The notes beneath the pieces were generated by a model. That model was given only the letters and a program-made list of their open reading frames with translations. It was not told where the DNA came from and did no database searches. A program made the translations under genes and the position numbers. A stretch of DNA of 64,000 bases, from the IMG/VR virus record IMGVR_UViG_3300009092_000015, positions 547-64,546 of that record; one strand, 5' to 3'. Origin of the DNA: a virus (Duplodnaviria > Caudoviricetes). This document shows, piece after piece, positions 3,250-59,582 of the stretch (positions within the stretch are counted from its first letter, which is position 1; each line of letters starts with the position of its first letter).

Positions 3250-3476
3250 TCTAAGCTAGCCTCCAGGACTTTGGCGTCGGCATGACAGTCATCGAGGTAT
3301 ATCTCCATGGACCTGATAGCCTCCTTTTCGGTAAATCCGAAGCAGGAACCGAACACCCCGGTATGGCCGTCTACGAAGGAGAACCAGTAGGGCTGATATG
3401 CGGATTCATACGCACGGATACGCTGCTTCAAGGCTTGAAGTCGTTGGAATTTGTTCATAGTTCCCCCTCCTCCCAT
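3246..3476 (-). CDS. hypothetical protein
   Basis: Minus-strand run; start probably ATG 3458; contains a 13-bp palindrome read as LQALK. Confidence 0.55.
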   Translation of the reverse strand: MGGGGTMNKFQRLQALKQRIRAYESAYQPYWFSFVDGHTGVFGSCFGFTEKEAIRSMEIYLDDCHADAKVLEASLE

Positions 3477-3802
3477 TCGTCCATGATGGGGAAATCACCG
3501 GGGTCCTGACGTTCAGAGTATTCGGATTCAAATCTAACTGGGGTCAGTTTGACCTGATTATTACGTAGCATAAACTTAAGGTCCCAATCTGTTACCTTCG
3601 ATACACCGAACGGCAAGTACTGAAGTAGGTCAATGTCCATTACGTACTCTACGATGTCCGATACGGAGTTTGGGTTACCTCCCCATTCTAGGACTTCCTC
3701 GGCGGTATACTCCATGATCAGTTCCCCTTTGATGTCTGAGATGAAGTAGTGACCGTCCTGCAATTCTGTCACGGCAGATAATGTGTTGCTGAATAGCTTC
3801 AT
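3455..3802 (-). CDS. acidic hypothetical protein
   Basis: 4-nt overlaps with neighbours. Confidence 0.6.
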   Translation of the reverse strand: MKLFSNTLSAVTELQDGHYFISDIKGELIMEYTAEEVLEWGGNPNSVSDIVEYVMDIDLLQYLPFGVSKVTDWDLKFMLRNNQVKLTPVRFESEYSERQDPGDFPIMDEWEEGEL

Positions 3803-4206
3803 AGGCTCTTATCCTTCTTAGCTGATCGGTGTTTCTTCCGCGTAGTCAGATGCTTCGAGCATCGTCGCTTAGTCTTGTCTTCCAGTTCCCCGCCACATGC
3901 TACGCACCTGCCTTGCCGAGCCCACATAAGCTGATATTTCCGCGTCTTGGACACGTTCAAGGCTTGAATATCTGCATCGATGTAACTCCTCGTAGTCAGC
4001 GTAGGCGTGACCTCGAACATCGTAGCTTCGTCCGCTAGCAACAGTTGGGCACCCTTGCCGAAGTAATGCCGGTACCGCTCCATGACGAACCCAGGGCTCG
4101 ACGGCATCTTTGCCGAGCCCTTGTAGGTCCATCCTCGGGATTCCAGAAACTCCCTGTTAGGGGAATGGAACTCCAGGGTTATGAGTTCGGGGGTCCCTTC
4201 TGGCAT
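3799..4206 (-). CDS. hypothetical protein with basic C-terminal Zn motif
   Basis: GRCVACG...RCSKH; palindrome read as IQALN. Confidence 0.6.
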   Translation of the reverse strand: MPEGTPELITLEFHSPNREFLESRGWTYKGSAKMPSSPGFVMERYRHYFGKGAQLLLADEATMFEVTPTLTTRSYIDADIQALNVSKTRKYQLMWARQGRCVACGGELEDKTKRRCSKHLTTRKKHRSAKKDKSL

Positions 4207-4445
4207 TACTCATTACCTGCTAGTCCCCGGTAGGCAGCGGTATAGGTTTCGCCGTATGCCTGTTTGGCCTTGCGAAGTGCCTCGGCGTGGGATATCAAGG
4301 TACGGCCTAGCCCCTCAGCAGCACGGGGGAAAGCGACGATGCAGATAAAGAAGGTCCCGAATAGGACCCAGGTAGTGTTGAGCATAAGGGATTCCGTGAT
4401 TTCCATACGTCTAGTCCTTTCTTGTAGGGGCGTTTGCGATGGCAT
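4206..4445 (-). CDS. single-pass membrane protein
   Basis: Hydrophobic WVLFGTFFICIVAF segment. Confidence 0.5.
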   Translation of the reverse strand: MPSQTPLQERTRRMEITESLMLNTTWVLFGTFFICIVAFPRAAEGLGRTLISHAEALRKAKQAYGETYTAAYRGLAGNE

Positions 4446-4815
4446 TGAAAGCCGAAGCTGGGTTGCGGGAGTATGCGAAGAATCTAAATAGCTGAGACGC
4501 AGGCCATACAGCAGACCAAGGATTAGGGATAATCTCCTGGTTGCTATCGTAACTTACTGGCACTACTAACAGCGTGTTTCCATACTCGTTGATATACCAT
4601 CCTGGACCTGAGAACTTAAACCCTACTAACTGCGATTCCGCTTCCCCTACTTCCCAGTCTTCCGACCAATTTGGGACGAACTCCCAGATAGGTACATCTA
4701 GTTGTGTCCGCATTTCTAATCCTCGTAGATTACTTCCCGATCCAGGAAGTGTTTGAACAGCCGCTGAATAATGGCTTCCCGATCTGCCTCGGAGGTTGGA
4801 AGATGGAAGTCCCAA
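4411..4815 (-). CDS. hypothetical protein
   Basis: True start probably ATG near 4713 (MRTQLDV). Confidence 0.5.
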   Translation of the reverse strand: MGLPSSNLRGRSGSHYSAAVQTLPGSGSNLRGLEMRTQLDVPIWEFVPNWSEDWEVGEAESQLVGFKFSGPGWYINEYGNTLLVVPVSYDSNQEIIPNPWSAVWPASQLFRFFAYSRNPASAFNAIANAPTRKD

Positions 4816-5183
4816 ACCTCGGGTGGGGCATGCTTTCGGAACCAGGAAGTGAAATCCTTATCACGTAGGGAAAAAGGGGGCTTATCGGAGTCAAGCGAAT
4901 AGTCATTTAACGTGGCAGCGACTTCGATGAAACAAGATGACCGTTCACTATATAGTTCTAATGACCCCTGTTCAATTAAGCCGATAAGCTTATCCCTGAG
5001 ATCGTCACTATCCCAGATATATATTGGAAGTCCTCTGCCTTCGATCCGATTCGCTGGGATACCTCGGAGTAGACACTCGAACCCAAGGCAACACTTCCTG
5101 CCGTCCTGTTTGCGCAGTAGGGCTGATCCAGTTCTATTCCCCCTGTACCACTCCGACCGTTTGATTACCAATGGTTCGTTCAT
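4716..5183 (-). CDS. hypothetical protein, CCLG paralog 1
   Basis: KCCLGFECLLRGI shared with the 5180 gene. Confidence 0.7.
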   Translation of the reverse strand: MNEPLVIKRSEWYRGNRTGSALLRKQDGRKCCLGFECLLRGIPANRIEGRGLPIYIWDSDDLRDKLIGLIEQGSLELYSERSSCFIEVAATLNDYSLDSDKPPFSLRDKDFTSWFRKHAPPEVWDFHLPTSEADREAIIQRLFKHFLDREVIYED

Positions 5184-57457: not shown

Positions 57458-57478
57458 TATTATTGGAGAATAAGTTAA

Positions 57479-59143
57479 ATGACGCAGTTAGAGCAGGCAT
57501 TCGCGTTAGCAGCTACGAGCGTTGAGGATTCCATCCGAGCCGTTCAAGCCTTGATTCCGGCGTATCAGGTACCAGTGCCGGTGCCTGTACCTCAGCCATC
57601 CGGGGGCAATGGCTACCCTTCGATGACTATCGACCCCAGGACCTACGGGGCGAAGGGGGATGGCTCCGTAGACGACACCGGGGCTATCCAGAAGGCATTG
57701 GACAATGCCAGTATGGGGATTACCGGCCCATCCATGGTACTTCTTGCGAGGGGAGACTACCTCTGCAATGGACCTACCCTGAAGTTCAACAATGATGGGA
57801 TTATCCTCCAGGGATTCGGTATGGATGGGCAAGGTCCATATGACCCCAATGCATCTCGGCTGATTGCCGGTCCGAACCACGTCAACGGACCGATGATCCT
57901 GATCGACGCCAATGATGGGGGAAAGCAGTGGTATCGGGGTACGTGCCTGAGGGGTATTTCCCTAGATGTAACTAGATGCCCGTACTTCACCAAAGGTCAG
58001 GACCCGGCTAAGGGTGACCCTACGCCTCCTCCAGTGCTTAAACTCCGAGGCTTATCTAACTGCCCCGAGTTCCGAGATATTCTGGTTTGGGGCCATACAG
58101 GTTCGGCAATAGATATCGGATGTAACACCGTAGCCGGTGCGGTATCTGAGAATCTGAGATTCCTGAACTTCTGGGCATACGGTGGACATACAGCCGATGG
58201 TGGAATAGGTAAGGAGGTCCCTAAGGCTCCAGGGATACTCAACACAGGTGCGGATAATATTCAGTTCTACGGTGGCTTAATGGCATATGACAATGCCAAC
58301 GGGACTCTGCCTGTGACTAACTCCCCAGCAGATATAGCGGCTATACAGGTAATGCCTGGAGCTATCGGTGGAGGTTACGGTGGGATCAATGTAACCAACA
58401 ATGGGTTCATAGTTGAAGGTATGGCTATAACCAATTATGTGGTTAGTTGCCGAGTGAGTCCATTGTTGTTTAACGGTACTTGGTATGGGTCGCAGCATAT
58501 CAAGTTCACCAATATGGTTATTGAGAACTTCAATCGGGCCTTTGTGGTGAACGAGGAAGCCGAGTCGAATAATCTTGGCTACTGGAGATCTCAGGTGTTC
58601 GTCTCCAAATGTATTATCGGTGGTGGCAATGCATGGTATGGTCCGAACCCCCATCAGTTTCTCGGCGACCATATGAATGGTGGAATCATTGATCTGGATT
58701 TCCTCGGCTTCCCTGGTGATCTGTCATTGGGTCCGGAAACCAATGGCGTCAGGTACTCCATTGGTTCTAACCCAAATGGCCCAGGAGTCTTCTACGATGC
58801 CAAGGACCAGGGGACTAACTCTGGTCAGTTCTGCCGTAACGGCGTCCCAGGTTCGGTGCTGAATGGTTCCCTCGCTGTTATGGGTAATACCCCTGCCAGT
58901 CAGGCGGTTCGGGGAACCGGCAACACAGGCATACAGTCCTGGGGTGATACGGCTCAGCTTTGGGGATCATCCAGGACCCTAGGTAGTAGTTCCCAATCGG
59001 ACCCTGGGAACTTCGGGGAGATGGTAATGTATCAAGATCCGGCTGATGGGAAGTTCTACATCGCCGGATGTATCAAGGGTGGGAATCCAGGTTCGGCAGT
59101 ATGGCATAGAGCCCTATTGCAGCCCTGGGGAACCAAATCGTAG
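57479..59143 (+). CDS. pectate-lyase-like beta-helix protein (tailspike/depolymerase)
   Basis: DPRTYGAKGDGSVDDTGAIQKALD ... LARGDY. Confidence 0.75.
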   Translation: MTQLEQAFALAATSVEDSIRAVQALIPAYQVPVPVPVPQPSGGNGYPSMTIDPRTYGAKGDGSVDDTGAIQKALDNASMGITGPSMVLLARGDYLCNGPTLKFNNDGIILQGFGMDGQGPYDPNASRLIAGPNHVNGPMILIDANDGGKQWYRGTCLRGISLDVTRCPYFTKGQDPAKGDPTPPPVLKLRGLSNCPEFRDILVWGHTGSAIDIGCNTVAGAVSENLRFLNFWAYGGHTADGGIGKEVPKAPGILNTGADNIQFYGGLMAYDNANGTLPVTNSPADIAAIQVMPGAIGGGYGGINVTNNGFIVEGMAITNYVVSCRVSPLLFNGTWYGSQHIKFTNMVIENFNRAFVVNEEAESNNLGYWRSQVFVSKCIIGGGNAWYGPNPHQFLGDHMNGGIIDLDFLGFPGDLSLGPETNGVRYSIGSNPNGPGVFYDAKDQGTNSGQFCRNGVPGSVLNGSLAVMGNTPASQAVRGTGNTGIQSWGDTAQLWGSSRTLGSSSQSDPGNFGEMVMYQDPADGKFYIAGCIKGGNPGSAVWHRALLQPWGTKS

Positions 59144-59168
59144 TACAGTCAAGTGGAAAGGAAAAAGC

Positions 59169-59555
59169 ATGTCTCACGGAAAAGTCTTGAAGTTGGAATC
59201 GATGCTGTTGTTGGTTATGTCTGGGGTAGCCTTGGCCCAACAGATAGGAGACCCAGCGGATAAGCCGCTGCCTGAACTGTATAGCCTTAAGGTAGACATC
59301 CAGGAGAAGGAAAAGGCCGCACGGGAGGCCAAGATCCAGGAGCTTCGGAAGTACATCCTGGCGGATATCGAGCAGGCAGAACAGGGGATCGTAGCCGAGG
59401 CTTGTAAGGCAGTATTGGCCGTAGAGCCTAAGGACTGTAACGTCTACCAGGACCAAAAGACGGGGAAGCTGATGATTGGGTATCGTCCTGGGTATAAGCC
59501 TGCCCAGGCTGCTCCGGCTCCTAGTCCTAAACCCCAGACCCCATCGCAGAAGTAG
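59169..59555 (+). CDS. signal-peptide coiled-coil protein (possible spanin-like)
   Basis: Start after GGAAAGG; LLLVMSGVALA-Q; heptads; Pro-rich end. Confidence 0.55.
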   Translation: MSHGKVLKLESMLLLVMSGVALAQQIGDPADKPLPELYSLKVDIQEKEKAAREAKIQELRKYILADIEQAEQGIVAEACKAVLAVEPKDCNVYQDQKTGKLMIGYRPGYKPAQAAPAPSPKPQTPSQK

Positions 59556-59582
59556 AAGTTCAAGCCTTGAATCAAGGAGGAA

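Follow-up and report, generated by a model that had tools for sequence, protein, structure and literature searches.

A dispersed 13-bp palindrome in a tailed-phage genome: a predicted genome-wide docking site for a two-fold symmetric DNA-binding protein

Background

Why would a tailed phage keep one short palindrome dozens of times along its genome, inside genes as well as between them? The question is raised by TTCAAGSCTTGAA, that is, TTCAAG(G/C)CTTGAA, a 13-bp word iterated across IMG/VR virus record IMGVR_UViG_3300009092_000015, of which we analyzed the 64,000 nucleotides from base 547 to base 64546 of the 64,546-bp total (hereafter, the window). A first-pass annotation made from the letters had reported 25 exact and about nine single-mismatch copies, and had proposed that a dimeric phage protein acts on the genome through them, with ParB/parS and the stoperators of Cluster A mycobacteriophages as possible models and four genes of the window as candidate binders. 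Both counts are correct. As for the interpretation, selection at the level of DNA, a symmetry that fits a dimer and conservation of the site all stand, whereas the ParB/parS and stoperator models and most of the candidate binders find weak support or none.

The array is real, strongly selected and conserved, and is best filed with the known but unexplained dispersed dyad repeats of phage genomes. Judging from the sequence, the word, which spans ~15 bp with its flanks, is probably where a sequence-specific protein with two-fold symmetry docks on double-stranded DNA with high affinity, and it is kept genome-wide. Dispersed invariant dyad repeats were described in 2015 in Cluster O mycobacteriophages and, as far as the literature searched shows, neither a reader nor a function has been reported for them since. 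In the phages studied here, one lineage has preserved the word through deep divergence and a second has another word in its place, which makes the group well suited to tracking down the reader protein, whether by comparison or by pull-down. The identity of the reader would show whether phages have a general, ParB-independent way to mark or silence a whole chromosome; if the array proved to be an ordinary repressor network, it would still be a useful palindromic counterpart to stoperators.

Copy number and sequence constraints

The window holds 25 exact copies, from 3427 to 59571 and each where the first-pass annotation had placed it (Table 1); 100 dinucleotide-preserving shuffles gave 0. The count is still 25 over the whole record, in which the reversed control pattern occurs 0 times. 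Nine near copies with one mismatch and two with two mismatches bring the number within two mismatches to 36, versus 1.05 expected, and a repeat survey of the genome found no other word comparably repeated. With dozens of copies, invariant arms and few near-misses (25 + 9 + 2), the repeat has the form of a dispersed dyad array.

Constraint extends to the center and the flanks of the word. On the plus strand, the central base is G in 12 exact copies and C in 13, and it is never A or T, near copies included; on the coding strand, the split is 10 G to 15 C, with no strand preference overall. Of the 50 half-sites, a single one has T as the base flanking the palindrome (P = 1.6e-5), and this avoidance indicates that the constrained site is ~15 bp long. 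The near copies are of few kinds: the outermost T has become A in five, and an arm reads TTCATG in three, all of them in the control region described below.

Table 1. Copies of the palindrome, candidate binder genes and landmark structural genes (window coordinates; the strand is given for genes)
Feature	Position	Strand	Context
Exact copy	3427-3439		intragenic, codons 8-12 of the open reading frame (ORF) 3246-3476 (minus strand)
Exact copy	3956-3968		intragenic, ORF 3799-4206
Exact copy	6264-6276		junction: 10 nt past stop of 6286-7482, 4 nt before next ATG
Exact copy	9577-9589		junction: gives TGA stop of 9578-9802; 5 nt before ATG of 9341-9571
Exact copy	11272-11284		junction: after stop of 11296-11727; contains TTG start of 11076-11276
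Exact copy	15239-15251		intergenic, 51 nt upstream of ORF 14793-15188
One mismatch, TTCATGCCTTGAA	17667-17679		ORF-poor control region
Exact copy	18169-18181		ORF-poor control region
One mismatch, TTCATGCCTTGAA	18258-18270		control region
One mismatch, ATCAAGCCTTGAA	18595-18607		173 nt upstream of the NarL/GerE-type gene
Exact copy	19133-19145		intergenic between the NarL/GerE-type gene and 19178-19723; 51 nt downstream of the former
Exact copy	19626-19638		intragenic in 19178-19723
One mismatch, TTCATGCCTTGAA	20325-20337		overlaps a two-mismatch copy at 20333
Exact copy	21792-21804		intergenic, just 3' of tRNA-Glu
One mismatch, ATCAAGCCTTGAA	23545-23557		
Exact copy	24919-24931		gives TGA stop of 24655-24930; ends 8 nt upstream of TTGACA-N18-TATATT
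Exact copy	25365-25377		1 nt before ATG 25379, whose gene precedes the large terminase
Exact copy	27955-27967		directly after TGA stop of 27532-27954; upstream of the Shine-Dalgarno (SD) sequence and ATG of the next gene
One mismatch, ATCAAGCCTTGAA	29556-29568		
Exact copy	31445-31457		portal gene, hypervariable C-terminal linker (DSSLE)
Exact copy	32145-32157		head protein 31511-33358, variable linker (VQALK)
Exact copy	35254-35266		intergenic, 8 nt past stop of 33390-35246, before a GC-rich hairpin
Exact copy	35969-35981		intergenic, directly upstream of GGAGG and GTG 35992
Exact copy	38847-38859		intragenic, 38318-39265
Exact copy	40112-40124		intragenic, 39780-40373 (DSSLE)
Exact copy	42737-42749		intragenic, 42301-42975
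One mismatch, TTCAAGGCTTGGA	44901-44913		
Exact copy	46887-46899		fills the gap from TAG stop (46882) to ATG 46902
Exact copy	47707-47719		fills the gap from TAA stop (47693) to ATG 47722
One mismatch, TTCAAGCCTTGAT	51248-51260		
Exact copy	52532-52544		last codons of 52051-52551; 8 nt before ATG 52553
Exact copy	56274-56286		intragenic, 52553-57457
One mismatch, TTCAAGCCTTGAT	57543-57555		
Exact copy	59559-59571		between stop (59555) and AAGGAGG SD/start of 59583-63248
NarL/GerE (LuxR)-type helix-turn-helix protein, stand-alone, 104 aa	18768-19082	+	best candidate binder (putative)
Second candidate binder	19178-19723	+	PHROGs only: N-terminal module common to phage HNH-endonuclease families, plus replication-initiator-O-like winged-helix part
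Large terminase	25791-27314	+	
Portal	29994-31514	+	
DUF6582 head protein	31511-33358	+	
Capsid-like gene	33390-35246	+	

Selection acts on the DNA word

Inside ORFs, the motif reads x-Q-A/G-L-x or x-S-S/R-L-E, and the frames named by the first-pass annotation (xQAL/xQGL and DSSLE) are correct. The codons by which these peptides are spelled are far from expectation: 10 of the 15 QAL tripeptides in the ORF set are written CAA-GCC-TTG, for which codon usage predicts 1.4%, and the motif codons also spell 4 of 9 QGL, 2 of 2 SSLE and 2 of 2 SRLE (expectations across the tripeptides, 1.4%, 0.9% and 0.1%). They are minority codons (CAA 26%, TTG 19%, TCA 10%, CTT 14%). The third frame of the motif contains TGA, which two genes use as their stop codon. 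This codon cost, the use of two reading frames and the existence of intergenic copies bear out the earlier proposal that selection acts on the DNA itself.

Several readings that would place the constraint elsewhere were tried and rejected. As RNA, the word folds into a 5-7-bp A/U-rich stem with a three-base loop, with an energy no better than that of shuffles (z from -1.9 to +0.1) and without a U tract; such weak folding, together with arms that are invariant and show no compensatory changes, speaks against a repetitive extragenic palindrome-like or terminator hairpin, since invariant arms mean that sequence is conserved and not structure. A promoter reading fails for lack of a conserved -10 element at a fixed distance: only the copy at 24919 stands beside a strong promoter, the strongest sigma-70-like one of the window (TTGACA-N18-TATATT, 24940-24969, starting 8 nt after that copy). 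A mobile element fares no better, as a 13-bp insertion would shift the reading frame, which the intragenic copies preserve. A protein with two-fold symmetry that reads a G:C pair would accept G or C at the center alike, whereas on RNA the two would differ. Symmetry, a center confined to G:C and invariant arms therefore point to a dimeric protein that would read double-stranded DNA.

Even spacing and preference for gene junctions

The sites occur at a mean density of ~1 per 2.3 kb along both transcription arms, and they are spaced more evenly than chance would have it. The coefficient of variation of the gaps is 0.56 versus 0.94 for random placement (P = 0.002), the largest gap is 4825 bp versus a mean of 8809 bp expected (P = 0.0003 to 0.002), and the smallest distance between exact copies is 446 bp. 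Sequence outside ORF cores makes up 15.6% of the total and holds 13 of the 25 exact copies (P = 2.5e-5). Read on the coding strand, ten copies occupy the few bases that separate a stop codon from the following SD sequence or start, six others are intergenic and nine are intragenic, a reading that agrees with the list of junction copies in the first-pass annotation; the 16 junction or intergenic copies and the nine intragenic ones are found on both arms, with no orientation to transcription.

The central base follows the local context. Ten copies are placed as a ribosome-binding site would be, 1-12 nt ahead of a start codon or its SD sequence, and all five that precede an ATG without another SD sequence have G at the center on the coding strand, giving AAGG. 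Conversely, eight of the nine intragenic copies have a central C, giving Ala or Ser codons (center base versus context, P = 0.04). This choice by gene context implies a reader that tolerates the central G:C pair in either orientation and leaves the genes to choose.

The 2.7-kb control region around the two regulator genes amounts to 4.2% of the sequence yet contains 8 of the 36 copies (P = 1e-4), and it is enriched in degenerate variants, with five of the eight copies weakened. A control region with mostly weakened variants around the NarL/GerE-type gene is as expected for graded autoregulatory operators. Even coverage, a place at nearly every operon junction and uniformly strong sites argue for a genome-wide task rather than the control of a few promoters.

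Conservation in related phages

Relatives found through the terminase, at up to 55-60% identity (29 IMG/VR loci up to 55%, and 30 GTDB loci), contain no copy of the word. Closer kin emerged from protein searches, on an NCBI contig of 103 kb that represents the closest relative (86% identity in the terminase, 85% in the head protein) and on Logan/ENA contigs of ~101 kb and ~41 kb; the DNA examined was that of relatives other than these. At the protein level, SSLE is present in the best portal homologue (P0122, 63%), at the residue where the motif copy lies in the hypervariable C-terminal linker, and among 120 portal homologues the peptide recurs in just one other, at a different position. Four head-protein homologues (P0242, 85%; P0244, 46%; P0276, 38%; P0260, 38%) have [VL]QALK at or near residues 174-212, versus residue 212 here, with P0242 and P0244 the only ones aligned to the same position.

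The DNA behind one of these peptides could be read. The IMG/VR contig of P0260 (L184; 4 kb, 58% GC) carries the exact 13-mer at the homologous linker position, written CTT-CAA-GCC-TTG-AAG, in a head protein of 38% amino acid identity; its portal fragment is the most similar among IMG/VR relatives (57%). In 24 other relatives with a locatable linker position, the sequence there is unrelated. The exact match implies that the word is older than this genome and was kept through deep divergence, and the conservation of sites despite divergence that the first-pass annotation had asked about is thus borne out at this linker. In sum, the word stands at a homologous spot in L184, peptide proxies for it occur in four other relatives, and it is absent from ~110 more distant ones.

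A search for repeated dyads in ten larger relatives, taken whole, found no dispersed array in nine of them, nor in the Brevundimonas phage Polewnik. The tenth, a distant relative (G411, IMGVR_UViG_3300050821_006155; 27.9 kb, head protein 33%), has six copies of another palindrome, TCCGCT-N-AGCGGA, at 5864, 11082, 14481, 18743, 23774 and 26907, spaced by 3.1-5.2 kb and without any near-misses. Five copies are at gene junctions, immediately 5' of an SD sequence or start, and in five of the six the palindrome extends to 15 bp with T/A flanks. Judged from these genomes, such arrays are confined to certain lineages and may differ in their word from one to the next, which fits a reader protein that co-evolves with its sites.

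Scans for the word beyond these relatives were unproductive. Among the matches listed, a 14-mer scan of IMG/VR returned chance singletons only, and a double-motif scan gave 0 matches in IMG/VR and two in metagenomes, both rejected. One (L177) is a collagen-like GIQGLKG coding repeat; collagen-like G-I-Q-G-L-K-G can spell the motif by coding alone and so yields false positives when scanning for the word. The other (L178, Ga0137389_10273383) is a soil contig unrelated to the phage by BLAST, with T-flanked copies: positions 803-1396 contain three exact copies and one degenerate copy of the 13-mer, all T-flanked, two of them within a longer repeat, TTTCAAGCCTTGAAG-N-TTTTCGGTAG. L016 and L026-L029 also seemed to have repeats, but these are of collagen-like or compositional origin and do not form dyad arrays. 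Other palindromes do recur in related phages: two of them (G415, 61 kb, at 37096-41477, and G416, 119 kb, at 56011-60392) each have four copies of a 14-bp palindrome, CCAAAGCGCTTTGG, within 4.4 kb, a clustering that suggests operators of local range and not an array across the genome. A third (G418, locus L208) has TATCAC-N-GTGATA four times in tandem at 90309-90879, with a period of 168-222 bp and conserved flanks, along with dispersed copies at 18733 and 73918; the tandem may be an iteron or origin-like array.

Candidate reader proteins

The four proposed binders fared unequally. The LuxR-type protein at 18768-19082 is solid as a member of the NarL/GerE helix-turn-helix (HTH) family (Pfam GerE PF00196, E = 2.5e-16, 59.5 bits versus a cut-off of 23.5), and it matches the NarL C-terminal domain 1je8 (E = 3e-10) and, more broadly, the DNA-binding domains of NarL, VraR, ComA and DosR (E from 3e-10 to 1e-7). 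Proteins of this family bind inverted repeats as dimers. On sequence grounds, it is the sole firmly identified candidate among DNA-binding proteins, and its being the reader is conceivable but doubtful; its only IMG/VR homologue lies in an unrelated 68% GC contig without an array. The gene at 19178-19723 has matches in PHROGs only, with none in Pfam or PDB, the "XRE" label of 2590-3249 comes from a PHROG match at E = 1e-4 with none in Pfam or PDB, and 24655-24930 has no DNA-binding signal in Pfam or PHROGs. Across ~60 ORFs scanned with Pfam and PHROGs, a nuclease, a methyltransferase, a recombinase and any further HTH protein were absent.

The parS/ParB proposal found no support in profile searches: ParB_N (PF02195), HTH_ParB (PF17762) and KorB (PF08535) gave no candidate in six frames of the record at E <= 1, with control genomes positive. 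The Phage_integrase profile likewise had no match in six frames. For the 307-aa protein at 12022-12945, a look-up in the ESM Atlas was uninformative and returned no ParB-like look-alike.

Relation to described systems

Among published repeats, the nearest match is that of Cluster O mycobacteriophages, a 17-bp dyad (5'-TGTTCGG-N3-CCGAACA) of which Corndog has 34 exact and three one-mismatch copies, and for which Cresawn et al. (2015, PMC4351075) proposed binding by a dimeric protein without assigning a function. Both arrays have dozens of copies with invariant arms (25 exact and nine one-mismatch here), a mix of intergenic, start-proximal and intragenic positions, no orientation to transcription and few copies near promoters; the Cluster O repeat is absent from other phages, as the present word is from ~110 more distant relatives. 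However, the word here is built as 6-1-6 with a G/C center, as opposed to 7-3-7 with an A/T-rich center, the phage lineage is unrelated, and both arms are covered evenly, whereas the intergenic copies of Cluster O are concentrated in one operon. The even spacing and the codon cost are quantified here beyond the Cluster O comparison.

Three other systems resemble the array in part. KorB-OB of the IncP plasmid RK2 (PMC11790492) likewise has a 13-bp palindrome with G/C at its center, in copies found throughout a replicon of ~60 kb, and its sites are read by a dimer that exerts global, long-range control. The form of the site (a palindrome of 13-16 bp in several copies) is shared with ParB-parS and KorB-OB; by contrast, no ParB-family domain is detected in six frames of a record that is 87% complete, the sites are about twice as many, and they lie in a phage in which no partition genes were found. 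Cluster A operators and stoperators (L5 gp71, TipsytheTRex repressor; PMC9283540) also comprise a 13-bp word present >20 times genome-wide, largely in the short intergenic gaps of long operons. However, stoperators are asymmetric, are read by a two-domain monomer and work in one orientation to transcription only (PMC9283540), whereas the word here is a perfect palindrome in which only the center base differs and which shows no arm-wide bias. As to a Cluster A-type integrase or immunity repressor, there is no Phage_integrase match and the repressor-like call for 2590-3249 is weak, no search for a gp71-type fold having been made. The stoperator reading is accordingly not sustained, lacking the defining asymmetry and orientation as well as an integrase; even so, Cluster A stoperators plausibly illustrate how an array at gene junctions could work.

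The start-associated sequences (SAS) of Cluster K (PMC3203893) are a 13-bp repeat a few bases upstream of starts that sometimes contains the stop codon of the upstream gene, as here; they are absent from the host and have no assigned function. Unlike the present word, they are asymmetric and oriented, limited to non-structural genes and equipped with a full AGGAG (PMC3203893), while the word here is palindromic, occurs on both arms and has a third of its copies inside genes.

The conserved inverted repeats of phage phiC31 are palindromic operators, too, which lie at many loci and are bound by one repressor; they are ~17 bp long, fewer in number and tied to early promoters.

What the array may do, and the alternatives

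We favor an explanation in which the phage would keep about one site per 2.3 kb, in non-coding junction bases where possible and otherwise within genes by means of rare codons, for a reader that is probably phage-encoded. Site and reader would co-evolve, as close relatives keep the word, one distant relative has another 13-bp palindrome and others have none. Tentatively, the job of the complex may be to block or silence transcription at each gene junction, as a symmetric counterpart of stoperators; that it organizes or marks the whole chromosome is a less likely proposal. A more specific version seems unlikely: a ParB-independent counterpart of KorB-OB, in which a small NarL/GerE-type dimer or another small phage protein would mark or coat the chromosome from evenly spaced, co-evolving palindromes at almost all gene junctions, and sub-lineages would have switched words. 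Coating of this kind would act as a transcription brake, as a self-label against a nuclease or as a condensation scaffold. Recombination between copies, by analogy with Cluster O, may be a side effect.

Some observations weigh against a phage-borne docking site. NarL/GerE-type dimers usually read longer or differently spaced sites, and the presence or absence of the window's proteins over 12 relatives showed only head genes to be shared, so that co-occurrence links no protein to the sites. The record is estimated to be 87% complete, so the gene for the reader could lie in the missing part or belong to the host, and the even spacing and junction preference would also fit a role in recombination or cleavage.

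A host-encoded reader, or a signature of the host genome that the phage copied or exploits, be it an iterated palindrome, an uptake-type sequence or the site of a nucleoid protein, is improbable in our judgment. It would draw on the putative status of any phage-encoded reader and on the dispersed palindromes that serve Noc, SlmA and MatP in bacterial hosts. The word is also about ten times commoner than its reversed control in sampled bacteria, being held by 85 of 401 Pseudomonadota genomes versus ~8 for the control, though it is never enriched: no genome has more than three copies, and five genomes with terminase relatives have 0, in a sample of 406 that is low in power. The same word occurs in relatives of 52% and 58% GC, the different palindrome with the same placement in G411 fits a phage-borne reader better, and the hosts of the Cluster O phages lack the comparable repeat (PMC4351075). 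Still less probable is a loading site for a ParB/KorB-type clamp, as discussed last. That the copies are sites of cleavage, nicking or recombination, whether for exchange between phages at module boundaries or as targets of a phage endonuclease, strikes us as very unlikely, even though they are placed at gene and module boundaries, an exact specificity of 13-15 bp is typical of nucleases, the word in L184 sits between diverged and conserved protein segments, and recombination between Cluster O repeats is documented (PMC4351075). The proteins scanned lack nuclease and recombinase domains, nine copies lie deep in genes where exchange would break the gene, and recombination needs no even spacing. 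It may be a side effect rather than the selected function.

An action in RNA, as an intercistronic hairpin or a protein-binding element for mRNA processing, stability or translation initiation (compare the Cluster K SAS), has a similarly slim chance. The ten copies just before a start codon or its SD sequence, the AAGG-giving G centers and a palindrome that is transcribed identically from both arms would suit it. However, the hairpin is weak and its arms invariant, the coding-strand center shows no preference between G and C, which are equivalent on DNA but not on RNA, nine copies are in coding sequence and several in untranslated or ORF-poor DNA, and SAS elements are asymmetric and oriented (PMC3203893). 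Least probable of all, in our view, is that the copies load a cytidine triphosphate-dependent sliding clamp of the ParB/KorB type that is too diverged to be recognized or is encoded in the missing part of the genome. A spacing of ~2 kb would suit spreading clamps. The 60-kb plasmid RK2 has 12 KorB operator sites. In form, the word is nearly the KorB operator, a 13-bp palindrome with a G/C center (core TTTAGCGGCTAAA, PMC11790492). Yet the ParB_N, HTH_ParB and KorB searches described above gave no candidate, and the sole unassigned protein of 300 amino acids that was checked has no ParB-like look-alike.

Other features of the genome

The record is classed as linear in IMG/VR, with an estimated completeness of 87%, and this tailed-phage genome is organized in two divergent arms. 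Among cultured phages, siphophages of Brevundimonas come nearest (terminase identity 49%), and no close relative was found in the phage and plasmid collections searched. The left arm, up to ~16.5 kb, consists of small minus-strand genes without assigned function; most early proteins have no match in Pfam or PHROGs, no recognizable replication, recombination, integration or lysis-regulation genes were seen there (noted at 5672-8618), and the only annotated genes are a DUF932 gene (6286-7482) and a phosphoribosyl-transferase-like gene (10630-11076). After an ORF-poor interval at 16.5-18.7 kb between the arms, the plus-strand arm carries, in order, the NarL/GerE-type HTH gene, the initiator-O-like gene, a tRNA-like cluster, a Ro60-like gene, the large terminase, the portal, the DUF6582 head protein, the capsid-like gene and long tail genes.

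The ORF-poor stretch (16500-18760, 2.2 kb) is probably a control and/or origin region. It contains an AT-rich patch (17700-17960), several promoter-like TTGAC elements, a 32-nt inverted repeat (16900-16931 and 17018-17049) and weakened variants of the motif. An over-represented 8-mer, CTGGATTC, was considered as a further repeat and set aside: its 19 copies (e.g., at 2492, 21839, 35198 and 62310) versus ~2 expected occur on both strands with no extended consensus, and the excess is probably compositional.

Five matches to tRNA models fall within 1.1 kb (21499-22636), of which tRNA-Glu(TTC) and tRNA-Pro(TGG) are called and the rest are partial or interrupted. The cluster lies directly 5' of the 507-aa Ro60-like gene (22815-24338), whose sole match in phage databases is a 595-kb uncultured phage (28.8% identity); one relative (G422) also has a homologue of this gene (43%). 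Toward the right end of the window, the 1221-aa tail-fiber-like protein (59583-63248) contains collagen-like G-X-Y repeats, which are also seen in relatives.

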